The notes beneath the pieces are model-generated. The model saw only the letters and a program-made list of their open reading frames with translations, made no database searches and was not told the origin of the DNA. Below, in pieces: positions 3,470 to 45,204 of a DNA stretch of 64,000 nt (position 1 is its first letter; each line of letters opens with the position of its first letter). The stretch is from Candidatus Harrisonbacteria bacterium RIFCSPHIGHO2_02_FULL_42_16. GTDB taxonomy: Bacteria > Patescibacteriota > Minisyncoccia > UBA6257 > 02-FULL-45-10c. Where the stretch lies: the NCBI GenBank assembly GCA_001818695.1, contig MHJG01000009.1:309-64308 (forward strand). Direction: 5' to 3'. The position numbers were made by a program, and so were the translations under genes.

Positions 3470-4834
3470 ATGGAACACAATAAACTTTGGCAAACCGCTC
3501 TCGGAGAAATAGAGCTTCAAATTTCCAGGCCCAATTTTGTGACTTGGCTTAAAAACAGCCAGCTTATTGACAAACAAGACGGGGTCGCGTTAGTCAGCTT
3601 GCCGAATAATTTTTCTAAAGAATGGGTAGAAAATAAATATCAAAAAATAATCCTTGCCGCCATAAGAAATCTGGACGAAACAACAAAAACAATTAAATTT
3701 ACAGTCCATGGAAATTCTTCAAACGCAGGCTCTCTGAAAAATAAAAATTTGCCCGCTTCCGAAAAATATAAAGAGCAATCGTCTTTTGACGAATTAATAA
3801 TCAATCCGGACACCAATCTGAATCCGCGTTATAAATTAAGTTCTTTTGTGGTGGGAAAATCCAACGAATTGGCTTTCGCTGTCGCTACGGCAATAGTGGA
3901 AAATGTGGGTAAAAAATATAATCCTCTTTATGTTTACGGCGGCGTAGGCCTTGGAAAAACTCATTTAATCCAAGCGATAGGAAATGAAGTGTTGAAAAAA
4001 TACGACAACAAAGTCCGGGTTAAATATGTAACTTCTGAAAAATTTACCAATGATGTTATTTACGGCCTCAAAAATAGAAGGATGGAAGATATGAAAGATA
4101 AGTATAGAAGCGTGGACGTGCTGATTATTGACGATATCCAATTTATAGGCGGAAAAGCGGCAACCGAAGAAGAATTTTTCCATACTTTTAACGCGCTTTA
4201 CGATAATAATAAACAAATTATAATCTCTTCCGACCGGCCCCCGAAATTTCTTCCGGACTTAGACGAACGCCTCAAATCAAGATTTGAAGGCGGCATGAAG
4301 GCGGACATTGTTTTGCCGGATTACGAACTCCGAACCGCGATATTAAAAACTAAGCTATCGGAAAAAAATGAAGATTTACCGGAAAATATAATTGAATTAA
4401 TCGCCAATAAAATACAAAGAAACCTTCGGGAATTAGAGGGGGTTTTAAACCGGGTTATTTTCTATAAAAAAACGAAGTCGGCCGTTTCTTTAAAAATCGT
4501 TGAAGATATCATAAGCGATACCGTTAAACAACCGACTAAAAATATTAATCCGAACCAGATTATTAAAGCAGTTGCCGATTATTTTGATGTTTCTTCTGAA
4601 GAGTTAGCTGGCCGTTGCCGAAAAAAGAATATCGTTGAACCAAGACAAATAGCAATCTATCTTTTAAGGGATGTTTTGAATTTATCTTATCCTTATATTG
4701 GTGAACGGCTTGGAAAAAGAGACCATACTACCGCCATTTACGCCTATAAAAAACTTTCCGAAGAAATAAACAGAAATACCGATTTAAACCAAAAAATTAT
4801 GGCTATTAAAGATTTAGTTTATAAAGAAATATAA
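3470..4834 (+). CDS. dnaA: chromosomal replication initiator DnaA
   Basis: Walker A GVGLGKTHL, AAA+ box DDIQFIGGK, and a C-terminal DnaA-box-binding domain. Confidence 0.95.
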   Translation: MEHNKLWQTALGEIELQISRPNFVTWLKNSQLIDKQDGVALVSLPNNFSKEWVENKYQKIILAAIRNLDETTKTIKFTVHGNSSNAGSLKNKNLPASEKYKEQSSFDELIINPDTNLNPRYKLSSFVVGKSNELAFAVATAIVENVGKKYNPLYVYGGVGLGKTHLIQAIGNEVLKKYDNKVRVKYVTSEKFTNDVIYGLKNRRMEDMKDKYRSVDVLIIDDIQFIGGKAATEEEFFHTFNALYDNNKQIIISSDRPPKFLPDLDERLKSRFEGGMKADIVLPDYELRTAILKTKLSEKNEDLPENIIELIANKIQRNLRELEGVLNRVIFYKKTKSAVSLKIVEDIISDTVKQPTKNINPNQIIKAVADYFDVSSEELAGRCRKKNIVEPRQIAIYLLRDVLNLSYPYIGERLGKRDHTTAIYAYKKLSEEINRNTDLNQKIMAIKDLVYKEI

Positions 4835-16364: not shown

Positions 16365-17255
16365 ATGAAGAAGTTATTGCTTATTGACGCCAATTCGCTT
16401 ATTCATCGGTGTTTTCACGCGCTTCCTCCGCTGACCACGCCTAAGGGTGAGCCGATTAACGCGGTGTACGGGTTGTCCAGCATTCTTTTGAAGATTTTGC
16501 GGGAGCACCAGCCGGATTATGTGGCGGCGGCTTTTGACCGGCCGGAACCGACTTTTCGAGACGAGATTTTTAAAGAATATAAAGCCCATCGTCCGCCGAC
16601 CGCCGATACTCTTGTGCCGCAGCTTAAAGAAGCCCACAAAACATTTGAAAAATTTGGAATCAAAGTGGTGGAAAAAGCCGGTTTTGAGGCGGATGATGTC
16701 GTGGGAACGTTGGCCGAGCGATTTAAGGATTCGGAAGCCCTTCGGCAAGCTCAGGGTGATGACTTTGAGCTCAAAGTCATCATATTCTCCGGCGACAAAG
16801 ATAATTTACAGCTTATAGACGACGACAGAGTAGTGGTGGAACTTTTGAAAACTGGCGTCAGTAAAACCGTTACTTATAACAAGGCATTTTTTCTCCAGAC
16901 CTACGGATTTTCTCCGGAGCAATTAGTGGATTATAAGGCGCTGGTGGGCGACGCTTCGGATAATATTCCGGGCGTGATGGGAATCGGCCCGAAGGGCGCG
17001 ACCGATTTAATTAAGGAATACGGCTCGGTAGAAAAAATTTATGAAGAAGTCGGCTTGATTTCCAAAAAGGTTTTGCAGGAAAAATTGGAAAAAAATCGCG
17101 ACAGCGCTTTTTTATCAAAAAAATTGGCAACGATAAAACGCGATGTGCCGTTGGAAATAAATTTGAATGACTTAAAACAAGGCAGAATGAGCAAGGAAGA
17201 ACTCAAAAAATACTTTGAAGAGTTGGGATTTAAGAGTTTGACAGAAAGATTGTAA
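16365..17255 (+). CDS. 5'-3' exonuclease (Pol I N-terminal FEN domain as a stand-alone ORF)
   Basis: LLIDANSLIHRCFHA..., FEADDVVGTLA, IFSGDKDNLQL, and a helix-hairpin-helix region. Start taken at MKKLLL (SD upstream). Confidence 0.85.
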   Translation: MKKLLLIDANSLIHRCFHALPPLTTPKGEPINAVYGLSSILLKILREHQPDYVAAAFDRPEPTFRDEIFKEYKAHRPPTADTLVPQLKEAHKTFEKFGIKVVEKAGFEADDVVGTLAERFKDSEALRQAQGDDFELKVIIFSGDKDNLQLIDDDRVVVELLKTGVSKTVTYNKAFFLQTYGFSPEQLVDYKALVGDASDNIPGVMGIGPKGATDLIKEYGSVEKIYEEVGLISKKVLQEKLEKNRDSAFLSKKLATIKRDVPLEINLNDLKQGRMSKEELKKYFEELGFKSLTERL

Positions 17256-18024: not shown

Positions 18025-18074
18025 TATAAATTATCTACTATCTATGCGATCGCATAGATAGTAGATAATTTATA
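18025..18074. repeat. 50-bp perfect palindrome (left copy) TATAAATTATCTACTATCTATGCGATCGCATAGATAGTAGATAATTTATA
   Basis: Read directly. The core 38 bp is identical to the right copy except at one central base. Confidence 0.9.
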
Positions 18075-18094: not shown

Positions 18095-18676
18095 TTATTG
18101 CAATTGTTTTATAGTTCCGGTTTTGCTTATGGCAAAAATTTCTATATAAGGAAGAATATTCCAGCGCTGAAGATCGTTAAAAAATTCTTCCGGCAAAATT
18201 GTTTTTCCAATCCAAACGCTTTTTTGGAGCATTCTAAATTTCAGATTTTTTAATGCCTCTCTTAACCAATTACGCCCCATCTTTTTAGTTTCTGGTATAT
18301 CAAAGGCGACTATTTTAATTTCATTTGATCGTTCTATTTTATAATTTGGTTTGGAATTATATTTTTTCTTTATCATTTCACTTTTACCCCTTTCTGTAAT
18401 TTTCCAAAAAGTGGCGCCGGTTTTATTTTTTTCCTTTATAATTAAGCCAGCAGTTTTTAATTTGCATAGCAATTTACTGATTCGCTGTCTTTCTTCTAAG
18501 TTTTTAATAGTTTTTTGTAAAATTTGTTTCCTTTCCGGAATAAGAGATTTCATGCCCTTCATCCTTCGATATGTTTCGGTGTAACCAAAATAAGATATGG
18601 TATTTAAAATATCTTTGGTAATCATATCCCCAGCTTGAATTAACTTTAGAATCGTTAATGTTATATCGCCTTTCAT
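18095..18676 (-). CDS. hypothetical DNA-binding protein: N-terminal winged-helix, C-terminal Cas2/VapD-like motif (tentative, PaaX-like architecture)
   Basis: 193 aa. The C-terminal KIVAFDIPETKKMGRNWLREALKNLKFRMLQKSVWIGK resembles the Cas2 core (YDI...RR..L...G.R.Q.SVF). The gene is flanked by the two palindromes. Confidence 0.45.
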   Translation of the reverse strand: MKGDITLTILKLIQAGDMITKDILNTISYFGYTETYRRMKGMKSLIPERKQILQKTIKNLEERQRISKLLCKLKTAGLIIKEKNKTGATFWKITERGKSEMIKKKYNSKPNYKIERSNEIKIVAFDIPETKKMGRNWLREALKNLKFRMLQKSVWIGKTILPEEFFNDLQRWNILPYIEIFAISKTGTIKQLQ

Positions 18677-18724: not shown

Positions 18725-18766
18725 AATTATCTACTATCTATGCGACCGCATAGATAGTAGATAATT
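18725..18766. repeat. 42-bp near-perfect palindrome (right copy) ..TTATCTACTATCTATGCGACCGCATAGATAGTAGATAA..
   Basis: Read directly. One central mismatch relative to the left copy (GCGATCGC vs GCGACCGC). Confidence 0.9.
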
Positions 18767-18793: not shown

Positions 18794-20317
18794 ATGTTTG
18801 CAGATTTTAATCTTAAAGAAAAATTTAAAGAACTGAAAAAACAAGACAAGAAAATTCCAAAAGACCCCTCGGCCGCGCTCGGGGCAAGTTATTTTGATTT
18901 GGGCGTGGCATTTTGGATGCTTAATCCCGACGAAAAAGAATATACAGCGGAATTTTTAAGCAAGAAATATCTTAATAAAGAATACAACCCTTCGGTTGGC
19001 TCAGGGTTAAAGCAACTTTATGAAGTTGCTTTAAAAAAGTTAAAAGAATATAAATTGGAAGGGCTTTTTTATGATGTGGAAATGCCGCTGATTGAGGTAT
19101 TGGCGGAGATGGAATCGTTGGGCGTGAAGTTGAATGTGGGTGGCTTGAATAGCTTGGAAAAGAAATTAGAAAAAAATTTAAGCGAGCTGGCGAAGAAAAT
19201 TTATAAAGAAGCCGGCGCGCCGTTTAATATCAATTCGCCGAAACAGTTGGGAGAAATGCTTTTTCAAAAACTTGGCATTGACGCCGCTGGCGTTAAAAAA
19301 ACCAAAGGCGGCGCGATTTCTACCGACGTAGATACGCTTTTGACTATCAAGGACCGCCATCCGGTTGTTAAATATCTTTTGGAATATCGCGAATTATTCA
19401 AATTGCAAACAACTTATGTTCGGCCATTGCAGGCGCTCGCAGACAAAAAAGGCAGAGTGCGTACAACCTATATCCAAACCGGGACTTCTACCGGCCGGTT
19501 AAGTTCGCAGAACCCTAATTTACAAAATATACCGATTGGAAATAATTTAGCAACGGAATTGCGGAAATGTTTTGTGGCGGAAAAAGGATATTCGTTTATT
19601 TCTTTTGATTATTCGCAAATTGAATTGAGGGTATTAGCTTCGCTTTCCGGCGACCCCAAAATGATGGAAGCGTTTAATAATGATTTGGATATTCATAAAA
19701 TGACGGCGGCAAATGTTTTTAATAAACCGTTAAGAGAAGTTACGCCGGAAATGCGGCGGCTGGCGAAGACATTAAATTTCGGAGTGGTGTATGGAATGGG
19801 CGCGAACGCGTTTGCTAAAACCAGCGGTTTAAGCGTAACCGAAGCCCGTAAATTTATAGATGAGTATTTCAACGATTTTAAAAAAATAAAAGTATGGCAG
19901 GAAGAAATTAAAGCGCAGGCGCGGACTTTTGGTTATGTTACTAATCTAAATGGCCGCCGCCGATGGCTTTTGCAGGCGACCTCAATGTTCCGCGGAGAAG
20001 CCGCGGAAGCCGAACGGGCGGCAATCAATATGCCAGTGCAGGGATTGGCGGCGGATATTATTAAAATCGCGATGGTAAAAATATCAAAAGAAATTAAAAA
20101 ACAGAAATTAGAAAACAGCATAAAAATGCTTTTGACGATTCACGACGAATTGCTGTTTGAAATTAAGGACGAGGCGCTGGAAGAAGCCGTAAAAATTATT
20201 TCCGGAATAATGGAATCCGCTTATGAATTAGAAGTGTCGGTAAAAGTAACGGTTAAGGTTGGCAAGAACTGGGGAGAATTAAGCGCTTTTTTGAAAAGTG
20301 ATATTTTGATGATATAA
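18794..20317 (+). CDS. polA: DNA polymerase I, polymerase domain (with vestigial 3'-5' exo remnant) as a separate ORF
   Basis: Motif A DYSQIELR, motif B RRLAKTLNFGVVYG, motif C HDELLFE, O-helix. The N-terminal roughly 110 aa match only the end of the 3'-5' exo-like domain. Confidence 0.85.
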   Translation: MFADFNLKEKFKELKKQDKKIPKDPSAALGASYFDLGVAFWMLNPDEKEYTAEFLSKKYLNKEYNPSVGSGLKQLYEVALKKLKEYKLEGLFYDVEMPLIEVLAEMESLGVKLNVGGLNSLEKKLEKNLSELAKKIYKEAGAPFNINSPKQLGEMLFQKLGIDAAGVKKTKGGAISTDVDTLLTIKDRHPVVKYLLEYRELFKLQTTYVRPLQALADKKGRVRTTYIQTGTSTGRLSSQNPNLQNIPIGNNLATELRKCFVAEKGYSFISFDYSQIELRVLASLSGDPKMMEAFNNDLDIHKMTAANVFNKPLREVTPEMRRLAKTLNFGVVYGMGANAFAKTSGLSVTEARKFIDEYFNDFKKIKVWQEEIKAQARTFGYVTNLNGRRRWLLQATSMFRGEAAEAERAAINMPVQGLAADIIKIAMVKISKEIKKQKLENSIKMLLTIHDELLFEIKDEALEEAVKIISGIMESAYELEVSVKVTVKVGKNWGELSAFLKSDILMI

Positions 20318-35388: not shown

Positions 35389-38300
35389 TTAGATTTTTTT
35401 GACCCCAATCCAAATTGGCTCTTCGTTAAGTTTTGAATTTAATTCCGCGTCAAATTTTCCGGTTTTTTTAAATTCAATTGATTTTGCGCCCACTTCTTTT
35501 TTAAGAAAATTCGCATTTTTTTCCAGCGTGGTCTTATACGCCTGGGTATCAATCATTAGCGCGATGGTGTCTTTGGGAATATAATTCGCGTCATGCCTGA
35601 GGCCCTGCACCATTCGTGCCAATTCTCTTAACAGTCCCTCTTCCTGAAGTTCGGGCGTAATTTTAAAATCCAGATTAACTTCATTTTTAATAACCATATT
35701 CCAATTAACTTTTTTTACGTTCACTTCATTTTTTATAACTTCTATCAATTCCGTGTCTCTTGCGTCAATTTTTGAACTTTTAATTTCCAGTGTTTGAAGC
35801 GGCTGGCGGACTTTAACGCCTTTTTCAGCGCGGAGCGCTAAGGCCAGGCCGGAAATTCGCCTAACTTCCTCCATTTTTTCCAAAAGCGAATAATCCATTT
35901 CTTTTTCATCGGCTTTGGGCCAGGCATCTAAATGTACCGAGTTTTTAATTTGCTGATTTTTATTTTTTGTTAAAGAAAGATAAAGAGCTTCAGCAAAGAA
36001 CGGCGTGAACGGAGCGATTAATTTGCTCAAAACAAAAAGCGAATAATAAAGGGTTTCGGAAGCCGATTTAAAGTCATTTTTATTTTTCGGTTTCTGCAAT
36101 CGGCTTCGGGAGCGCCGGATATACCACCTAGAAAGGTCGTCTACGAAGATTTCAATTGACTTGGCAGAGCCGCTAATGTCGTATTTTTCTAAATTTTCGG
36201 TTGCGTCCGCGGCGGTTTTATTAAGTTTTGATATAATCCAGCGGTCTAAAATATTTGTGCTTGGAGTCGGAAGCCGGGAGTTAGAAGTTTTTTCCGCGTA
36301 GGTATTCCAGAATACGAATGAATTATAAATAATCATTATAAATTTTCGCAAGGTTTTTCCCAAATCTAATTCGTCAAACACTTTCGGTTCTCCCGGAATC
36401 GTTTGGGTATAAAAATACCAGCGCAGGGTGTCTGCTCCGTATTTGTCCATCATTTCCCGCGGATTTATTGCATTACCTCTGGATTTAGACATTTTTTTTC
36501 CGAATTTGTCCAAAATATGGCCTTGAGTAACCACATTTAAATAGGGCGTGTTTTTTTTCAAAAGAGTGGCAATCGCCAGCAGGGAGTAGAACCAGCCGCG
36601 AGTTTGGTCGATTCCTTCGCTGATATAATCTGCCGGAAAAGCGAGCTGCTTATCAATTAAATCTTTATTTTCAAATGGGTAATGCCATTGGGCGTAGGGC
36701 ATGGCGCCGGAATCAAACCAGATATCGGCAACCTCTTTGACCCTTATCATTTTTCCGTCGCATTTAGCGCATTTTAAATGAATTTTATCCATATAGGGCC
36801 TATGTAAATCTAATTCTCCAACAGGATTATACGGCCAGTTATGCAATTCGGTTTTTTTAGCTATGCCATTAACTTTTATATAATTTAGCTTTAAAATTTC
36901 TTCATTGGATAATCCCCGCATCGCTCCTTCCAAAACCCAAAGCGGGTCGCCATGACTGACAATCAAAATATTTTTTCCATTATAACGGGAATTGATGTCT
37001 ATAATCGCTTCCAGCATTCTTTTTTTCACTTCATTTAAATTTTCTCCGCCCGGACAAATTTTAGTAAAGCGTTCCAGGTCGTTTTTGTGAAACTTATGGT
37101 GTTCTTCAACCGGGCGCCAATTAAAAATTCCGCAGTTTATTTCCGAAAGCCGTTTATCTATTATTACTCTGGATTTTGTGATTTTGGCGGCTATTTTTGC
37201 GGTTTCTTTGGTGCGGTTATACGGGGAAGCAAAAATAAAATCCAGTTTTTTATTGCCAAGCTCCTTTTTTAAATTTATAGCCGCCGATTCCGCGTTTTTT
37301 TTGCCTTTTATGGTAAGCCGGGAAATGTTTTTTCCGTGTTCCGGTCCGGAGGCGATAAGGTTGTTTAAATTATGTTCCGCTTCTCCATGCCGAAGTAGCC
37401 AAAAATTATTTTGGGAATATCTTAATTTGTCCAAATCCTCCAAACTTCCGATTACTTCCGTATGTCCACACTGTTCTTTTGTTCGCATGGGCGCGTTCGC
37501 ATTTCGCGAGGCCTTAGCCGAGCGAGCGCCATTCGCGTGCTGCCAGATTGGCAACGGCGTGCCCCAATAGCGATTTCTGGAAATTGACCAGTCCTTTACT
37601 TCCTTAAGCCATTCGCCGAACCGCCCCTGTTTTATATGTTCCGGAACCCAGTTAATTTTTTTGCCGTTGGCAATGATTTCATCGCGAAGCTTGCTCATTT
37701 CTATAAACCAGGAAAATTTCGCCATATAAAGAAGAGGGGTGTCGCATCGCCAGCAGAACGGATATTCGTGTTCATAACTGCCCGCTTTTAAAAGCGCTTT
37801 GGTTTTTTCTAAATGGCTGACAATATCCCGGTCGGCTGTTTTGGCCGGTTTGCCGGCTCCGGGCAAACCCTTTGCAACCATACCCCTGTCATCTACTGTA
37901 ATTGGGATATCATTAATTTTTAACTTTTCGCTTTTAACGCTTAATACTTCCTGCATAAGTTTCATATCGTTTTCGCCGAAAGCCGGAGCGATATGTACCA
38001 AGCCGGTGCCTTCTTCAGTAGAAACGAAGTCGGCGCCGCATACTTTAAAAAATTTGCTGTTTTTTTGCCAAGCCCCTTTTACGTTAAATAGCTGTTTATA
38101 TTTTAAGCCGATTAGTTTTTTTCCGGACATTTTTTCAATCACTTCATATTTAACATTATCTATTGTCGGCGGAGCGTTATATGACCACAAATATTCATTG
38201 CCTATCTTATATTTGGTATAGGTAAGCTTCGGATTAACCGCAATAGCGACATTTGCCGGCAAAGTCCACGGCGTGGTGGTCCAAATCAAAAGGTATTCAT

Positions 38301-38991
38301 TACCTTTTGATTTGCCCGCCGAAGCTTTAGTGAGGGAGGGTTTTAATTCAAATTTTACATATACTGACGGGTCTTTCACCTTATGATACGCGCCAGGCAT
38401 TCCAAGTTCGTGGCTGGAAAGAGGCGTTTGGCAGCGGGTGCAGTAGGGAACAATTTTAAATGATTGGGTTAGCAGGCCGCGCTTGGCGATTTCTTTGAAA
38501 ATCCACCACAAACTTTCTATATAATCTGGCTTATAAGTAATATAAGGATTTTTTAAGTCCAGCCAAAAGCCGATTCGGTCCGTAAATTTTTCCCATTCGT
38601 CCTGATATTTCCAAACCGACGCCTTGGCTTTTTCATTGAATTCCGCGATGCCGAATTTTTCAATTTCTTGTTTATTTTTCAAACCCAGCTCTTTTTCCAC
38701 CTCAATTTCTACCGGCAATCCTTGCGTGTCCCAGCCGGCTTTCCGGCGGACAAAAAATCCGCGCATGGTTTTATACCGGCAAATAATATCTTTAAAGGCG
38801 CGGCCTTCCGCGTGGCCCATGTGCGGCTGGCCGTTGGCTGTCGGTGGCCCTTCAAAAAACCTGAATACTTTCCGCGTTAATCCGCGCATATCCGCAGTTT
38901 GAGTTTTCTCAAAAATCTTATTTTCCTTCCAGAATTTAAGGACTTTTTCCTCTATCTCCGGCAATTTAAATTCTTTAAGCTTTTGTAACAT
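35389..38991 (-). CDS. ileS: isoleucyl-tRNA synthetase (type 2) with an in-frame histidine-phosphatase (PGAM-like) domain insertion
   Basis: HMGH (PHMGHAEGRA), CP1 editing domain, KMSKS (KMSKSRGN), anticodon-binding C-terminus. 1200 aa. Insert of about 237 aa lies between RYWGTPLPIWQHANG and ELDLHRPYMD. Confidence 0.9.
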   Translation of the reverse strand: MLQKLKEFKLPEIEEKVLKFWKENKIFEKTQTADMRGLTRKVFRFFEGPPTANGQPHMGHAEGRAFKDIICRYKTMRGFFVRRKAGWDTQGLPVEIEVEKELGLKNKQEIEKFGIAEFNEKAKASVWKYQDEWEKFTDRIGFWLDLKNPYITYKPDYIESLWWIFKEIAKRGLLTQSFKIVPYCTRCQTPLSSHELGMPGAYHKVKDPSVYVKFELKPSLTKASAGKSKGNEYLLIWTTTPWTLPANVAIAVNPKLTYTKYKIGNEYLWSYNAPPTIDNVKYEVIEKMSGKKLIGLKYKQLFNVKGAWQKNSKFFKVCGADFVSTEEGTGLVHIAPAFGENDMKLMQEVLSVKSEKLKINDIPITVDDRGMVAKGLPGAGKPAKTADRDIVSHLEKTKALLKAGSYEHEYPFCWRCDTPLLYMAKFSWFIEMSKLRDEIIANGKKINWVPEHIKQGRFGEWLKEVKDWSISRNRYWGTPLPIWQHANGARSAKASRNANAPMRTKEQCGHTEVIGSLEDLDKLRYSQNNFWLLRHGEAEHNLNNLIASGPEHGKNISRLTIKGKKNAESAAINLKKELGNKKLDFIFASPYNRTKETAKIAAKITKSRVIIDKRLSEINCGIFNWRPVEEHHKFHKNDLERFTKICPGGENLNEVKKRMLEAIIDINSRYNGKNILIVSHGDPLWVLEGAMRGLSNEEILKLNYIKVNGIAKKTELHNWPYNPVGELDLHRPYMDKIHLKCAKCDGKMIRVKEVADIWFDSGAMPYAQWHYPFENKDLIDKQLAFPADYISEGIDQTRGWFYSLLAIATLLKKNTPYLNVVTQGHILDKFGKKMSKSRGNAINPREMMDKYGADTLRWYFYTQTIPGEPKVFDELDLGKTLRKFIMIIYNSFVFWNTYAEKTSNSRLPTPSTNILDRWIISKLNKTAADATENLEKYDISGSAKSIEIFVDDLSRWYIRRSRSRLQKPKNKNDFKSASETLYYSLFVLSKLIAPFTPFFAEALYLSLTKNKNQQIKNSVHLDAWPKADEKEMDYSLLEKMEEVRRISGLALALRAEKGVKVRQPLQTLEIKSSKIDARDTELIEVIKNEVNVKKVNWNMVIKNEVNLDFKITPELQEEGLLRELARMVQGLRHDANYIPKDTIALMIDTQAYKTTLEKNANFLKKEVGAKSIEFKKTGKFDAELNSKLNEEPIWIGVKKI

Positions 38992-40105: not shown

Positions 40106-41716
40106 CTACATTTTCTTCGGCTTGCTGATGCCGAGGATGCTAAATAGATTTTCCAGCGCGATTTTTGTCGCGGAAACGAGCGCGAGGCGCGCTTGAGCTG
40201 TCTCTGGCTCGGCATCAATAACCCGTTCTTTTTCATAAAAGTTATGGAATGAACGCGCCAGCCGGGCGGCGTATTCTGTTAACCGATGCACTTGGTAATC
40301 TTTCACGGTTTGCGCCAAAACATCCGGAAATTTCATCAATTCCAGCATAAGCTTAATTTCAGTGATAGAATTTAGCATTTTTAAATTATTATTTGTCGCT
40401 TGTCGCTTGTCGCTTGTCGCTTTTCGTAAGATGTGTAAACATCTTACGAAAGCGTACTGAACATAATAAACCGGATTTTTCTGCGAACGTTCTTTTGCCA
40501 AATCCATATCAAAATCCATATGCGTGTCCAAAGAGTGCATTAAAAAGAAAAATCTGGCGGCATCCAAACCGACTTCTTTTAGCAAATCATCCAGCGTTAC
40601 AAATTCACCGGCGCGCTTGGACATCTTCACTTCTTTTCCTTTGCTTATCAGCCGCACTAATTGGGTAATTAAAATTTTAAGCCGTTTCGGTTTTACGCCC
40701 AGCGCTCTAATGCCGCTTTCCATTCGCGCTTTATAGCCGTGGTGGTCTGCTCCCCAGATATCAATCGCCAAATCAAATTTTCTTTTTAAAAATTTATCGT
40801 AATGATAAGCCAAATCCGCTAAAAAATAAGTCGGATTGCCGTCGGATTTTATCAAAACAGCATCTTTTAGCCACATAGCCCCATCTTTTTCATAAACCAC
40901 CTTTTTTCCCTTGAGAAATTTTAATGTTTTTTTGAGCTCTCCTTTTTTATGTAAATTTTTATCTTCCGAAAACCAAATATCGTGCTTGATGCCCGCATTT
41001 TTAAGAGATTTTTTTATTTCTTTAAATAAAATTTTAGCCGCTTCTTTTCCGATTTTTTCGCCATCGTAATTTTTTACTTTTAACTTTAAACTTTTAACTA
41101 AGTCCTTGACGTATTCTCCTTTATAATACTCATCTTTCCAGGGAATTTTTCCTTCAGCCGCCAAAATGCTTTCTCCCAAGAGCTTGATTTGATTGCCGGC
41201 ATCGTTAATATAGTATTCTCGCGTTACTTTATGGCCGGAATTTTCTAATACATTCGCCAGAACATCGCCATAAAATCCGGCGCGGCCGTTGGCCATAGTC
41301 AGCGGACCGGTTGGGTTGGCGGAAACGAATTCAAGGTTTATTGTTCGATGTTTGGTGTTTGGTGTTTGGTGTTTTAAACTGCCATATTTATTTTTTTGTT
41401 TTAGTATTGCTTTCAGTTCATTCTGCAGAATTTCCGGTTTCAGCCAAAAATTTACGAAACCCGGCGACACCGCTTCGATTTTAGCAAAAATCGATTTTGA
41501 GCTTGTTGGGGGGCTACTTAATTTTGATGCTATTTCTTTTGCGATTTCAAACGGCGTCTTTCCCGCCATCCCCGAAGAAGCTTTGTTTGTCGGGGTAAAC
41601 TTAAAAGCCATATTTGTAGAATAGTGTCCAAAATTTTCCTTTTCGGAAGCAAAAACTTCAATACCTATTTTTTCTTTAATTGCTTTTTGAAGCTGGTTTT
41701 TGATTTGCTCAATCAT
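40106..41716 (-). CDS. argS: arginyl-tRNA synthetase
   Basis: ArgRS N-terminal add-on domain, catalytic core SANPTGPL(TMAN)GR in place of HIGH, KMSKR, DALR anticodon-binding domain. Confidence 0.9.
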   Translation of the reverse strand: MIEQIKNQLQKAIKEKIGIEVFASEKENFGHYSTNMAFKFTPTNKASSGMAGKTPFEIAKEIASKLSSPPTSSKSIFAKIEAVSPGFVNFWLKPEILQNELKAILKQKNKYGSLKHQTPNTKHRTINLEFVSANPTGPLTMANGRAGFYGDVLANVLENSGHKVTREYYINDAGNQIKLLGESILAAEGKIPWKDEYYKGEYVKDLVKSLKLKVKNYDGEKIGKEAAKILFKEIKKSLKNAGIKHDIWFSEDKNLHKKGELKKTLKFLKGKKVVYEKDGAMWLKDAVLIKSDGNPTYFLADLAYHYDKFLKRKFDLAIDIWGADHHGYKARMESGIRALGVKPKRLKILITQLVRLISKGKEVKMSKRAGEFVTLDDLLKEVGLDAARFFFLMHSLDTHMDFDMDLAKERSQKNPVYYVQYAFVRCLHILRKATSDKRQATNNNLKMLNSITEIKLMLELMKFPDVLAQTVKDYQVHRLTEYAARLARSFHNFYEKERVIDAEPETAQARLALVSATKIALENLFSILGISKPKKM

Positions 41717-41797: not shown

Positions 41798-41926
41798 GTG
41801 CCAAAAACATTGCCTAAACTGAATCGTGTAAAAAGAAAAAAGAGGGGATCAACTAAACGTAAGTTAAAAGATAAAGAAACTTTCTCAATCCTGCGTCAAA
41901 TGCTTACACATTCGGGTCTGCCCTGA
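41798..41926 (+). CDS. possible small basic protein (42 aa, GTG start)
   Basis: VPKTLPKLNRVKRKKRGSTKRKLKDKETFSILRQMLTHSGLP. AGGAG six nt upstream. Stop sits inside terminator hairpin TCTGCC..GGCAGA + T6. Confidence 0.3.
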   Translation: MPKTLPKLNRVKRKKRGSTKRKLKDKETFSILRQMLTHSGLP

Positions 41927-41968
41927 CCGGCAGATTTTTTATTCTCTCAAATAGCTTACAATAAAGGT

Positions 41969-42409
41969 ATGAAATATTTATCGGAAAATCGGCGAGTGCG
42001 GTTTGATTACGAGATTTTGGAGACATTTGAAGCGGGAATGGTTTTGACCGGACAGGAAGTGAAATCCATAAAATCCGGACGCGCGAACTTAACCGGCGCT
42101 TATGTGGTCGTAAAGCCGGATAACGCTGTACTTTTAAATTGCCAGATTTCTCCATATCAGCCGAAAAATATGTCAGTTGATTATAAGCCAGACAGAACCC
42201 GCCAACTGCTTTTAAACAAAAAAGAACTTGATTATTTATTCGGAAAAACCAAAGAAGGTTTGACGATTGTGCCGTTGTCGCTGTATAATAAAGGTCGTCG
42301 AATTAAACTATCTATTGGCCTCGCGCGGCACAAGAAAAAACAGGATAAAAGGGGTAGTATAAAGAAAAGGGAATTTGAAAGAGAACGGGGAAGAACTTTA
42401 AAATCTTAA
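41969..42409 (+). CDS. smpB: SsrA-binding protein
   Basis: Typical SmpB sequence with a basic C-terminal tail. Confidence 0.9.
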   Translation: MKYLSENRRVRFDYEILETFEAGMVLTGQEVKSIKSGRANLTGAYVVVKPDNAVLLNCQISPYQPKNMSVDYKPDRTRQLLLNKKELDYLFGKTKEGLTIVPLSLYNKGRRIKLSIGLARHKKKQDKRGSIKKREFERERGRTLKS

Positions 42410-42412
42410 AAC

Positions 42413-42753
42413 GGGAGTGAAAAGCTTCGACAAATTATTTTCTATCAAATTAGCAAGCGGAGTGGCAACCTCATTAAAAGTTGCAAAACAATAAGTGCAA
42501 ACTTATTCAACAAACAGCCAGCTTTAGCTTACGCTTAACTGGCCATCGCTCAACTAAAGCTTGATAAGTTATTAAGCGGTGTCAAACATCAAGCTCTGCC
42601 TTGATACGCTGATATTCAAGGCGAAACTAATCAGCACAAAGTTTAAAGTGTTTTGTTAGATTATAGCTTTAAATTTTTCAAAATAATCTGACTAAGCTTG
42701 TAGAAAATTTGATAGTAATAATTTGGACGCGGATGCAATTTCCGCCACTTCCA
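42413..42753 (+). ncRNA. ssrA: tmRNA (transfer-messenger RNA)
   Basis: Starts 4 nt after the smpB stop. 5' GGGAGUG pairs with 3' CACUUCC (G3:U wobble as in tRNA-Ala), then discriminator A. T-arm GCGGA-UGCAAUU-UCCGC. Tag ORF GCA AAC UUA UUC AAC AAA CAG CCA GCU UUA GCU UAC GCU UAA (ANLFNKQPALAYA*) has the same ..AAUARGUNGCAAAC.. context as E. coli. Confidence 0.65.
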
Positions 42754-42825
42754 CTCCTTCGCTAAAACTACGGAGTGCGAGCACTACTTCAATAAAAAGT
42801 GCGAGCATTATTAGCTTTACCAAAA

Positions 42826-42856
42826 AATCTCGGCATTACCGAGATTTTTTGTTTTG
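42826..42856 (+). terminator. intrinsic terminator after tmRNA (atctcggcattaccgagat + T-run)
   Basis: aaaaaatctcggcattaccgagattttttgtttt. Confidence 0.6.
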
Positions 42857-42897
42857 CGAAGGAGTGTCCTCCGAAGCCTTGGCGTAGGAGGACAACT

Positions 42898-43153
42898 ATG
42901 TTAATAATTCTGTATGTCCTACGTCTATATTTTATAAAGCCAAAAAGATAAAAGTTATTACACTGGTGTTACAGAAAATTTGTCAGAAAGATTAAAAGCC
43001 CATAACTGGCAGACAGTAAAAATAACTAAATCAAAAACTCCTTATGAAATAGTTTGGTTTTGCGCTTTTGTAGATAAAAATAAAGCAATGGATTTTGAAA
43101 AATATTTAAAATCTGGATCAGGCATAGCCTTTCGTAATAAACATTTACTTTAA
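42898..43153 (+). pseudogene. GIY-YIG (UPF0213/YhbQ-like) nuclease-family gene interrupted by a frameshift in an A5 run
   Basis: Frame A: MLIILYVLRLYFIKPKR* (42898-42951). The -1 frame continues KDKSYYTGVTENLSERLKAHNWQ...SGSGIAFRNKHLL* to 43153. GIY..YIG..N.E.RL..H is the family signature. Confidence 0.5.
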
Positions 43154-43315
43154 TAAAACTTTATTTATCGCTTATTTTGGGTTTTCCAGAATTTACAAAA
43201 GATATCTAAATAAAGAGGAATGATTGACAAGAGTTTAATTTATAACACTTAAATCTTGACTTATAAAATTATCTAAGCTAATCTGTAAAAAGGATCATTT
43301 ACAAAATAACATTGA

Positions 43316-43771
43316 ATGAAACAGAAAAAAGAATATTGGATTTCTTGTTTAGTAAATAAAAATCCTGCGCCAGTTGTGTTTTCAAGCGAAAGAATGGTTG
43401 TGATAGATTATTTAGATAGAAATCAACCGCAGTGGATTATCATTCAGTTAAGAAATGTAATCGAAGCAGGAAACTTTAGTAAGTTTTCCGACGAACTCAA
43501 TTTACTTATTCCGGCTTATATTTTAGTAACGCCAACGCAAAAAGATAAAAAAAATGTTTTTGTTTTTTTACATGATATTGATTGCCGCTCTGTCTGCTTA
43601 CCTATAAAACTTTTAATTCATGAAACAAGAGAAAATTTGCAACGATTACTAAATGTTTTAGATTCCGTTGAATCGTTTACTAAAAAATGGTCTAAAAATA
43701 ATATTCAAATAGTTAATTCTGATTTAGTATTTGATTTACAAAAAGGTAAATTGAAAAGAAAAAGAGCTTAA
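43316..43771 (+). CDS. hypothetical protein (ORFan, AT-rich islet)
   Basis: 151-aa ORF in a very AT-rich stretch downstream of ssrA. No recognisable domain. Confidence 0.4.
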   Translation: MKQKKEYWISCLVNKNPAPVVFSSERMVVIDYLDRNQPQWIIIQLRNVIEAGNFSKFSDELNLLIPAYILVTPTQKDKKNVFVFLHDIDCRSVCLPIKLLIHETRENLQRLLNVLDSVESFTKKWSKNNIQIVNSDLVFDLQKGKLKRKRA

Positions 43772-43998
43772 AACTCTTTTTTATTTTATTTATCGCATAT
43801 ATAATACAAAAACATTAAACAAAATCCGACCCCGTGTATCCCAAGACAAGGAATTCATAAATCTCCCGAACGCTTCGACTTGGTTCGACTTAGCTCACCA
43901 CGAGTAGCTCAGCGCAAGCAAAAGTTTTCCACCCACCCCGATTCATTCCATAAAAATATCTAAAAGAAAAAATAAACAGGTCTTATCGTCGCTGCTTA

Positions 43999-44024
43999 GC
44001 TTGGTTCTAATATTAGAACCAAGC
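43999..44024. repeat. 26-bp perfect palindrome GCTTGGTTCTAATATTAGAACCAAGC (candidate operator) upstream of 44178 ORF
   Basis: Read directly. Confidence 0.8.
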
Positions 44025-44177
44025 AATAAATGATCGATGAGAAATTAACCCTCTCTATATACAAAATAAATTTTAATCTTATTTATCACAATTCGCGTAG
44101 AGATTTGACTTTATTTTTGATATGGAAGTAATATAGCAGGTAGTTTATTTCTAGTAGAAAAGGAGGAAAAGAGCGCT

Positions 44178-44459
44178 ATGAAATTTCCTGAATTTGCCGA
44201 TGCGATGGAAAAAGTTGGTTTTCGGAACGATGAGCCGCTTGCGCCGAAATTTAAGCTGAATAAAAGTGATCTGCAGGACCTCGCATTCAAAGATAGCCAT
44301 ACTAAAGTGGTCGGTTTTTATCGTGTCATAAGTATTTGGTCCGAAGGCGGAGAAGTTGCGTTATGGGCCCAAGAAGACAAGAGCGGCACCAAACTTTTTC
44401 CTTTCCAAAAAGAAGAGGTTGAATTTTTGGTCAAAAGAAACAAATTTAAGAAAAACTAA
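44178..44459 (+). CDS. hypothetical protein (93 aa) with strong SD
   Basis: aaaaggaggaaaagagcgct ATG. No recognisable domain. Confidence 0.45.
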   Translation: MKFPEFADAMEKVGFRNDEPLAPKFKLNKSDLQDLAFKDSHTKVVGFYRVISIWSEGGEVALWAQEDKSGTKLFPFQKEEVEFLVKRNKFKKN

Positions 44460-44591
44460 GGCATTATATTAATTTTTGCTCCTGACTTCGGTTGGGGGCT
44501 TTTTCTTTTTATCCCGAACAAAATCTAACTCTGTGTATTCTAAAAGAAAGAGGGCTATACAAACAAAAACAATTTTGCTATAATTTCTTAA

Positions 44592-45089
44592 TTGATTAGA
44601 ATAAACGAAAAAATAATCGCGACAGAATTATTGGTAATTGATGAGGCCGGCGAGAAGGTTGGCGTATTGCCGTTGGCGGAAGCGTTGGCGCTGGCTAAAG
44701 AGAAGGGCCTGGATTTGATTGAGGTGGCGCCGATGGCGAATCCTCCGGTGGCGAAGATAATGAATTTTGACAAGTATCGCTATCAGGAAATCAAGAAACA
44801 AAAAAAACAGCGCGCCCAGCAGAAAGTTCAGGAATTGAAACAAGTAAGAATCAGCGGCCGTTCCGCCCAGCACGACCTTGAGGTTAAAGCCAAAAGAGTA
44901 GATGAATTTTTAAACGAAGGCAACTTGGTAGAAATTCAATTGACGCTTAAGGGCAGGGAAAAGGCCCACAAGGACTGGGCGAAACAAAAATTGCTGGACT
45001 TCATTAAAATGATTAATCCTGAACATAAAGTGATTTTAGAGCCGAGATACGGCGGCAGGGGTTTTAGCATGCAGGTGATTAAAAAATAA
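44592..45089 (+). CDS. infC: translation initiation factor IF-3
   Basis: INEKIIATELLVIDEAGEKVGV... is IF3 N- and C-domain sequence. Non-ATG (TTG) start, as usual for infC. Confidence 0.85.
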   Translation: MIRINEKIIATELLVIDEAGEKVGVLPLAEALALAKEKGLDLIEVAPMANPPVAKIMNFDKYRYQEIKKQKKQRAQQKVQELKQVRISGRSAQHDLEVKAKRVDEFLNEGNLVEIQLTLKGREKAHKDWAKQKLLDFIKMINPEHKVILEPRYGGRGFSMQVIKK

Positions 45090-45204
45090 TGACCGATTCA
45101 AACTTACAAACTTTTATCCAAATCTACAAACGGTATGTGAATGGCTTAATAAATGGCCATATCTTTGTAGATTCGGATGTTGTTTGTAGGTTTGGATCGC
45201 TACT

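Follow-up and report, generated by a model that had tools for sequence, protein, structure and literature searches.

A folded leader and a small GIY-YIG nuclease gene at the 3' end of ssrA: a candidate mobile module within an accessory insertion of a Candidatus Harrisonbacteria genome

This work concerns the 1.8 kb between the transfer-messenger RNA (tmRNA) gene ssrA and infC in a 64-kb stretch of DNA (the window) from a genome of Candidatus Harrisonbacteria (Patescibacteria, or candidate phyla radiation, CPR) from Rifle groundwater. The interval begins with a structured leader followed by a small GIY-YIG nuclease gene, a pair that is called the module below. Among the described systems that come closest to it, genomic islands and prophages reportedly use tyrosine integrases to enter tRNA and tmRNA genes at their 3' ends (work of K. 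P. Williams and others). Palindromic systems include repetitive extragenic palindromes (REP) with their RAYT transposases (REPtrons), the Rickettsia palindromic elements, and IS200/IS605, whose insertion is guided by hairpins. In phage T4, SegB is a free-standing GIY-YIG homing endonuclease gene in a tRNA gene cluster (PMC2330249). As described below, the best explanation of the interval, to which we assign a rough probability of 0.6, is a layered accessory insertion that contains a dead copy of a mobile GIY-YIG module of tRNA and tmRNA, or t(m)RNA, 3' ends.

The module resembles each of these systems in part. Like SegB, it is an intergenic GIY-YIG gene beside tRNA-type genes that apparently spreads with its flanks and has a patchy distribution. 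However, nucleases of the SegB/I-TevI type are longer than 200 amino acids (aa), carry a C-terminal DNA-binding domain and belong to a UvrC-like branch, whereas the module protein is a bare 79-aa domain of the Slx1/UPF0213 type; in addition, its host is a cellular genome (Patescibacteria) rather than a phage, and its gene is always accompanied by a structured leader, which is conserved and adjoins the RNA gene at its last base. The module shares with t(m)RNA islands the exact 3'-end insertion and the atypical composition, and some related loci have direct repeats of 16-20 nt, but it has no integrase, is only ~0.45 kb long with a single nuclease gene, and in the window has no direct repeats. 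As with REP/RAYT, the Rickettsia elements and IS200/IS605, short GC-rich palindromes occur singly, in inverted pairs and in tandem near a nuclease gene, at least one unit lies in frame in a protein gene, and insertion is immediately 3' of a short fixed sequence. In contrast to REP/RAYT and IS200/IS605, the module protein is of the GIY-YIG type, not an HUH/Y1 transposase, and only one side of the gene carries the elements. It is also no REPtron, since its protein is GIY-YIG and just one further weak copy of the element is present in the 64 kb.

In domain family and size, the module protein is like the stand-alone Slx1-like/UPF0213 proteins (YhbQ; structures 1zg2 and 1ywl). The known UPF0213 family has been treated as a vertically inherited repair-type nuclease (PMC1564403), whereas the module is tied to t(m)RNA flanks and to a leader; a published link of the family to either was not found. 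The feature that defines each parallel is absent from the module, which lacks a DNA-binding domain, an integrase and an HUH transposase. In literature of incomplete coverage, we found no prior description of small GIY-YIG genes or of the leader at t(m)RNA 3' ends, nor of relevant CPR palindromic elements.

The insertion is evident from a comparison of SmpB-anchored loci from 80 related species, in which the array argS(-)|smpB-ssrA-infC-rpmI-rplT is found across Patescibacteria. The window has argS on the minus strand (40106-41716), then smpB, the tmRNA gene, the 1.8 kb with three small open reading frames (ORFs), infC, rpmI and rplT. Among the 69 species with smpB and infC on one strand of the fetched locus, the median gap between these two genes is 472 bp, which leaves space for the tmRNA alone; it is 393 bp in L023 and 2182 bp in the window. 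L023, the closest genome by housekeeping genes (SmpB 84% identical), lacks the module, and its ssrA end CCACTTCCAC is followed at once by the infC promoter CTATACAAAT...TGTTATACT. In the window (44553-44584; TATACA-17-TATAAT in a promoter scan), as in L023, L024, L026, L028, L029 and L031, infC is preceded by this promoter motif. From the junction in L023 and the shared promoter, the inserted block is delimited as ~42755-44552. Since smpB, ssrA and infC are tightly packed in most relatives, and ssrA is joined directly to the infC promoter in L023, the 1.8 kb of the window is an accessory insertion, as the first-pass annotation had supposed from its composition and its position after ssrA.

The site is also a hotspot, since more than 1 kb of unrelated cargo occupies the smpB-infC gap in 10 of the 69 species. 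In the nearest relatives, this cargo includes hydrolases, an HTH/IrrE-like (helix-turn-helix) protein, a pyridoxal-phosphate (PLP) enzyme, a toxin-antitoxin-like pair, a LAGLIDADG endonuclease (L101) and GIY-YIG genes (L038). No integrase ORF or remnant was detected by ORF and domain searches in 42757-44552, which agrees with the first-pass annotation, or, in the relatives, among the 10 longest ORFs of the cargo inserted here. Two properties of t(m)RNA islands, absence at the site in close relatives and atypical composition, are found here. Thus, of the earlier proposal of a decayed integrated element, the accessory nature and the decay (a nonsense codon, see below) stand, and the classical integrase island is not supported. 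As a separate observation, in L101 (Gribaldobacteria; 3522-4362), the LAGLIDADG ORF (Pfam 4.8e-6) begins at the last base of the tmRNA and spans the gap to infC, so that the ssrA-infC site is occupied by homing-endonuclease genes of two types.

The RNA gene at the left end of the block was correctly called a tmRNA gene from the outset: it matches Rfam RF00023 over 42413-42756 with 136 bits, against a gathering score of 47. ARAGORN makes no call on this gene. The 3' strand of its acceptor stem is 42746-42752 and is followed by the discriminator A (42753); the gene does not encode CCA. Its T-loop is the non-canonical TGCAATT, a type also found in L023, L024, L026 and L028. The AT-richness noticed earlier is real for the block as a whole (42757-44552; 32.5% GC compared with 40.2% for the window) and is uneven within it. 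The GIY-YIG gene (27.9%) and ORF151 (28.3%, among the lowest 1.6% of 456-nt windows) are AT-rich, the leader (41%) and ORF93 (40.4%) are not far from the window value, and a 128-nt stretch (43818-43945) has 49% GC and is not AT-rich.

The GIY-YIG gene itself is broken, in a way that differs from the single-base frameshift in an A5 run that had been proposed. Both halves share one reading frame over 42914-43153, which rules out that frameshift; its translation is MSYVYIL*SQKDKSYYTGVTENL..., with an in-frame TAA at 42935-42937, that is, at codon 8. The consensus residue at this codon is Q (alignment A2), so that a single C>T transition has turned CAA into TAA. The 19 columns that are invariant in A2 are all kept, including Y5, Y16, G18, R26, H30 and E62, and with the stop replaced the translation matches Pfam PF01541 with 58 bits (cutoff 22.6; E 1.2e-15). 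Over 41901-45100, the assemblies of at least 10 samples (JGI, ENA, Logan) agree at 100% identity; none has an intact ORF, TAA being codon 8 in all. This identity of independent assemblies indicates that the stop codon is genuine and fixed in the sampled population. Recoding is unlikely because TAA is the terminator of smpB, infC and ORF151. As judged from the translation, the gene is therefore killed by a single C>T transition at codon 8, fixed in the sampled population.

The protein that the gene would encode has 834 homologs, and most of the matches listed are 78-80 aa long. In a profile search of the PDB, the best relatives are 1zg2 (6.5e-15), 1ywl (1.2e-7) and the SLX1 structure-specific endonucleases (8e-5); models of intron endonucleases gave weak matches confined to the N-terminal part. 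UPF0213/Slx1 proteins are thus nearest, and the 79 aa are catalytic domain throughout, a single domain that is not accompanied by an auxiliary or C-terminal DNA-binding domain. These properties place it in the Slx1-like/UPF0213 (YhbQ) branch.

The homologs are strongly associated with t(m)RNA genes. We fetched 80 metagenome loci with GIY-YIG homologs (53-73% identity), of which 67 have at least 450 nt of upstream sequence and are assessable. In 61 of these 67, a tmRNA or tRNA gene lies on the same strand 66-382 nt upstream of the GIY-YIG gene, compared with a chance expectation of 1.8%. A tmRNA gene is found in 41 (its 3' end is 102-382 nt upstream in the 38 measured), and a tRNA gene ending 66-202 nt upstream in 20 (Ala, His, Ser, Ile, Tyr, Arg, Gly and Pro), so that at least nine different RNA genes precede the module. 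The junction at the end of the RNA gene is always ...CCAC|T or CCA|CT. The nearest intact homologs occupy the corresponding site: the arrangement ssrA-leader-GIY-YIG of the window recurs in L103 (90% aa identity) and, followed by a small ORF and infC, in L108-L110 (77%); L105-L107 keep ssrA-GIY-YIG despite a different left neighbor, and in L104 (smpB-GIY-YIG-ssrA-GIY-YIG) the tmRNA gene is flanked on both sides by GIY-YIG genes.

Other arrangements were noticed among these and the SmpB-anchored loci. A second, more distant GIY-YIG subfamily (38-46% identity with the window protein) is located 5' of the tmRNA gene, after smpB, in L104 (970-1233, 87 aa), L077 (8465-8659) and L032 (8450-8671). 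In L136 (1789-2720), the module lies between tRNA-Ile(GAT) and tRNA-Ala(TGC), a pair typical of the 16S-23S spacer. Three loci in which no t(m)RNA gene was detected upstream (L172, L182 and L153) have a TATAAT box and a conserved sequence of ~50 nt ending in ...GAGAGGGACCCCAC, ~130 nt upstream of the leader, which may be an unrecognized small RNA with a tRNA-like end.

Between the RNA gene and the start codon lies a leader of ~160 nt, composed of inverted GAA-type hairpin elements, and its architecture is the same with any upstream gene. Right after ...CCAC it has T-N-CTTCGC, a small hairpin and TTCG-N'-AGTGCAAGCAC; a variable stretch, often containing a terminator, and GCGAAG-N'-AGTG follow; and it ends with the hairpin GTCCTCC-GAA-GC...GC-GAA-GGAGGAC, an AT-rich stretch and the ATG. 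In the window, strand 1 (CACTCCTTCGC, 42752-42762) overlaps the last bases of ssrA and can pair with either a proximal partner (GGAGTG, 42772-42777) or a distal partner (GCGAAGGAGTG, 42856-42866); here, the distal pairing encloses the ssrA terminator, and a terminator-like hairpin with a T run is at 42821-42851. The last hairpin (hairpin c, 42866-42893) has the stem GTCCTCC/GGAGGAC and an internal loop GAA/GTA, the family consensus being GAA/GAA. This hairpin holds the GGAGG nearest the start codon, in its 3' arm, and in several loci this motif is 8-11 nt from the ATG.

The leader fold is stable (z = -6.9 in RNA folding) and its helices covary. For the covariation analysis, we used an unfitted MAFFT alignment of 27 leaders (A4), with 500 shuffles and slid controls. 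In the long-range helix together with hairpin c, 93.6% of cells are paired and 36 are double-change cells; in the alternative proximal helix, 98.4% of cells are paired, and the number of double-change cells was 33-36 over the tests. None of the 500 shuffles reaches the observed values, and the slid controls collapse. The covariance model built from the same 27 leaders, including that of the window, is called R1. The window leader scores 99.6 bits with R1, and loci outside the model score 47-106 bits. Scores above 45 bits were obtained before the GIY-YIG gene in 72 of 79 metagenome loci with upstream sequence, whereas R1 has no match after 78 of 80 tmRNA genes of related genomes, nearly all of which have no GIY-YIG gene beside ssrA. 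This presence before the gene and absence after tmRNA genes without it indicate that leader and gene travel together. With a leader that extends from the last bases of the RNA gene to the GIY-YIG ATG (42748-42916), the window locus is a member of the module family. The leader family was not found in Rfam 15, where sub-threshold chance matches alone were obtained. The GEBRO motif, considered as a possible GIY-YIG-linked RNA, is a plasmid motif.

Several observations suggest that the module moves. Proteins that are 82-91% identical are found behind different RNA genes, the protein tree is interleaved with respect to the upstream gene, and the nearest neighbor has a different upstream gene in 26 of 73 cases. 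The module is conserved more than the flanking housekeeping genes; for example, a comparison of the window with L109 gives identities of 88% for the leader and 85% for the GIY-YIG gene, but of 70% for infC. Between the window and L103, these values are 93% for the leader and 90% for the GIY-YIG gene, and similarity runs to 43264. In six of 49 loci, an exact 16-20-nt repeat of the 3' end of the RNA gene (from T-loop to acceptor) occurs soon after the GIY-YIG stop codon; these repeat-bearing modules are ~0.45 kb long and encode the GIY-YIG protein only. Solo leaders without a GIY-YIG gene are present after tRNA-Ala(TGC) in L136 and also in L116, and leader units are tandemly multiplied in several loci. 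Within the window, a further copy of the element is inside ileS (Table 1). It consists of a hairpin with 14-bp arms and a hairpin-c-like CCCGCCGAAGCTTTAGTGAGGGAGGG, is in frame, reads ...KPSLTKASAGKSKG..., and is located at a short extra loop in an alignment with Thermus thermophilus IleRS.

Two further notes on the hairpin elements may be added. The copy in ileS recalls the Rickettsia palindromic elements in protein genes. Matches to the hairpin element are also found in or beside the tmRNA genes of L033 (8556-8689) and L093 (8582-8661), which suggests element insertions inside ssrA.

The remainder of the block, from 43265 onward, contains ORF151, ORF93, a palindrome, a direct repeat and a GC-rich stretch. 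The first-pass annotation regarded both ORFs as lacking recognizable homologs, which holds for ORF93 but not for ORF151. An exhaustive HMMER search with ORF151 found 12 homologs of 103-162 aa (E 6e-14 to 2e-4), 27-35% identical with shared motifs (alignment A3), whereas a word-indexed search found ORF151 itself only. The homologs are on short groundwater contigs between unrelated genes and have no Pfam or PDB match; ORF151 has no match in Pfam, PHROG, NCBIfam, PADLOC or PDB, and no good Shine-Dalgarno sequence was found for it. No homolog of ORF93 was obtained in any search run (Pfam, PHROGs, NCBIfam, PADLOC, PDB and viral sequences). Viral relatives were found for neither ORF, and the two are not related to each other. 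AlphaFold models calculated without an alignment have confidence scores (pLDDT) of 38 for ORF151 and 60 for ORF93, these single-sequence models being too poor for use, and a Foldseek search of the PDB with the ORF93 model gave nothing below E = 1.

ORF93 (44178-44459) looks like a complete, self-contained unit, as far as its signals can be read from the sequence. It is preceded by a promoter-like TTGACT-18-TAATAT (44105-44134) and a Shine-Dalgarno sequence AAGGAGG (44160-44166) located 11 nt before the ATG, and is followed by a terminator hairpin with a T run (44478-44499). The perfect 26-bp palindrome reported earlier, a putative operator, is confirmed, 154 nt 5' of the ORF93 ATG and 81 nt upstream of the -35-like hexamer. 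Its half-site has no other copy in the window and none in viral contigs. It is not a canonical terminator, since a T run is absent on both sides. Note that palindromes with 13-bp arms are rare in shuffled windows, yet several are present in this genome. The palindrome and the ORF93 unit are bracketed by a 35-nt direct repeat, D1, whose copies are identical at 26 of 35 positions, eight of the nine differences being GC-to-AT transitions. D1 did not originate from a tandem duplication, since the two 700-bp units are otherwise dissimilar. On one contig (L022, NODE_51982, 2387 bp), ORF93-infC is followed by an opposite-strand ribosomal protein S8 gene, not by rpmI-rplT; this contig may be chimeric or a rearranged variant.

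The fragment that had been likened to a tRNA 3' end, GGTTCGACTTAGCTCACCA, is at 43882-43900, 5 nt from the position first given (43887-43905). It is not recognized by ARAGORN, Rfam (E up to 5), R1 or a half-element hidden Markov model (HMM), and none of these four supports 43873-43923 as a tRNA, a piece of tmRNA or a decayed leader. Its best match to the 3' end of the genome's own ssrA is 14/20, which is the chance level, and no copy of that end was found in the islet. When compared with the tmRNA 3' ends of 10 genomes, 43873-43923 shares only a 17-mer beside the fragment, GCTCAGCGCAAGCAAAA, which is identical to the sequence just after ssrA in L025. The GC-rich stretch also shares CTTCGACTT with the post-ssrA sequence of L025, and it holds a duplicated TTCGACTT; the local alignment score of 43873-43923 with L025 is 34, compared with a shuffle maximum of 27. 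Tentatively, this stretch is read as an ssrA trailer that has been displaced or as the debris of a decayed element. The earlier idea that the fragment is an att remnant has a real parallel in the six of 49 related loci with repeats, and for the window it is conjectural.

The explanation that we prefer combines these observations into two layers. Layer 1 (~42755-43153, with L103 homology to 43264) is a copy of the module lodged exactly at the 3' end of an RNA gene, and layer 2 (43265-44552) is lineage-specific cargo that consists of ORF151, element-like debris, the palindrome and the D1-bracketed ORF93. In the proposed mechanism, the module is selfish: its structure-specific nuclease would cut at or near the hairpin-forming 3' ends of stable-RNA genes, and repair would copy the module into the cut site, similarly to the homing of free-standing endonucleases. 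Leader-only copies would be non-autonomous derivatives, and repeated break and repair could create a hotspot that captures other DNA. The leader probably keeps nuclease expression low by means of its terminator and a sequestered ribosome-binding site, and once the nuclease was lost, the block would have decayed under AT-biased mutation. Insertion driven by the nuclease, the cause of the hotspot and the restraint exerted by the leader are what we infer from these patterns.

There are also points that count against this explanation. Cleavage, transcription and transposition of the module are presumed steps, deduced from comparisons of sequence. A 79-aa nuclease with no DNA-binding domain is unlike the characterized GIY-YIG homing endonucleases, and earlier work took the stand-alone Slx1-like branch to be non-selfish and inherited vertically (PMC1564403). 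The 80 metagenome loci represent the closest homologs, so they lack phylogenetic independence; six of the 67 assessable loci have no detectable tRNA or tmRNA gene upstream, and repeats of the RNA-gene 3' end are limited to six of 49 loci. In the window, the 3' end of ssrA is not repeated (best match 14/20; z = -0.8). The covariation would be expected to look alike for RNA structure and DNA inverted repeats, which it does not tell apart. In layer 2, D1 is only marginally above chance (26/35, the best of 60 shuffles being 25), the tRNA-like fragment is recognized by no model, and the explanation does not account for how the layer arose.

The principal competitor, which we judge unlikely, is that the leader and the GIY-YIG gene have a host function, in which the substrates of the nuclease would be t(m)RNA precursors, or else the DNA of highly transcribed RNA genes; the leader, co-transcribed with the upstream RNA, would serve in cis regulation or processing, and the other DNA of the block would be an unrelated intergenic gain. 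The constant orientation, the short spacing and the precise junction at the discriminator or CCA are consistent with this, as are RNA-like traits of the leader (non-complementary GAA/GAA loops, alternative helices, and, in several loci, GGAGG at Shine-Dalgarno distance) and the fusions of bacterial Slx1-like domains to a TrmH-type tRNA methyltransferase (PMC1564403). However, a host function fits poorly with a patchy module that the closest genome and most of the 80 related species lack, that follows at least nine different upstream RNA genes with an interleaved protein tree, and that is better conserved than the housekeeping genes on its flanks. It also leaves aside the solo and tandem leader units and the element-like copy in frame within ileS, and here the gene is dead, with its loss fixed in the population.

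More doubtful still is that the block is the remnant of an integrase-type island in the ssrA 3' end, whose integrase has been lost and whose decayed attR is the tRNA-like fragment. The block does adjoin the 3' end of ssrA exactly, it is AT-rich, and the closest relative lacks it; the direct repeats of t(m)RNA 3' ends in some related modules are a hallmark of att sites, and the 17-mer beside the fragment matches the ssrA trailer of L025. But neither an integrase nor a fragment of one was found in the block or in the largest cargo ORFs of the relatives, the modules that bear repeats measure only ~0.45 kb and encode nothing but the GIY-YIG protein, the genome's own ssrA 3' end is not copied in the block, and ARAGORN and Rfam see no tRNA in the fragment. 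The remaining alternative, a functional GIY-YIG gene whose interruption reflects a slippage-prone run or an error of sequencing or assembly, can be given almost no weight. An A5 run does sit 5 nt downstream of the stop codon, and otherwise the idea goes back solely to the suggestion of the earlier reader; the defect is a substitution of TAA for CAA that leaves the length unchanged, assembly error is ruled out by the identity of independent assemblies from at least 10 samples across it, and TAA terminates three other genes of the window.

The layered insertion with a dead module can be extended to a broader proposal, which we put forward tentatively and with the odds against it. The leader and the 79-aa Slx1-like gene would constitute an unrecognized class of minimal autonomous mobile elements of ~0.45 kb, which in Patescibacteria and some other bacteria insert precisely at t(m)RNA 3' ends, those of tRNAs within rRNA spacers among them, with a structure-specific nuclease in place of an integrase. 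Leader-only copies and hairpin copies within genes would be non-autonomous members, the copy in the window would have been killed recently, and the activity of the class would explain the hotspot.

The islet alone is ordinary accessory DNA, and it is the module behind it that is of interest, since the association of a conserved folded leader and a minimal GIY-YIG nuclease with exact 3' ends of stable-RNA genes is apparently undescribed. Should the module prove mobile, targeting of tRNA and tmRNA genes would not require an integrase, a testable role would emerge for the enigmatic Slx1/UPF0213 proteins of bacteria, and the module may be a source of GC-rich hairpin repeats and odd peptide insertions in CPR genomes. 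For annotation, a small GIY-YIG ORF that follows a t(m)RNA gene and has an R1 leader can be treated as one unit.

Table 1. Features of the ssrA-infC region and the related element in ileS (window coordinates).
Feature	Coordinates	Strand	Evidence or remark
Weaker second copy of the palindromic element	38278..38361	+	Inside minus-strand ileS; R1 26.9 bits, E 1.8e-7
smpB	41969..42409	+	Left anchor of the smpB-ssrA-infC array; Pfam SmpB 6.2e-48
ssrA (tmRNA)	42413..42756	+	Rfam RF00023, 136 bits, E 4.5e-53, full length
Leader of the GIY-YIG module	42748..42916	+	Match to covariance model R1, 99.6 bits
GIY-YIG nuclease gene, 79 codons, stop at codon 8	42914..43153	+	Translation; Pfam GIY-YIG 1.2e-15
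ORF151, AT-rich, small family	43316..43771	+	12 distant homologs
Direct repeat D1, copy 1, 35 nt	43818..43852	+	26/35 identical to copy 2
GC-rich debris including the tRNA-like fragment	43873..43923	+	17-mer in common with the L025 ssrA trailer
Perfect 26-bp palindrome GCTTGGTTCTAATATTAGAACCAAGC	43999..44024	strand-less	Sequence scan
ORF93 transcription unit	44105..44509	+	Promoter-like site, Shine-Dalgarno sequence, ORF, terminator hairpin
Direct repeat D1, copy 2	44517..44551	+	Directly 5' of the infC promoter
Conserved infC promoter region CTATACAAAC...TGCTATAAT	44553..44591	+	Right boundary of the inserted block
infC	44592..45089	+	Right anchor; Pfam IF3_N 1.1e-27, IF3_C 4.4e-16

Elsewhere in the window, IleRS (35389-38991, minus strand; 1200 aa) has an unusual insertion, in that the precomputed Pfam annotation puts His_Phos_1 between segments of tRNA-synt_1. 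Another perfect 26-bp palindrome, TGATGACTTTGAGCTCAAAGTCATCA, is at 16757-16782. By far the longest palindromes in the window are a perfect one of 50 bp (18025-18074) and a near-identical one of 42 bp (18725-18766; 20-bp arms and a 2-nt center), which are 700 bp apart and flank a 193-aa ORF (18095-18676, minus strand) just upstream of a polA-like gene (18794-20317).

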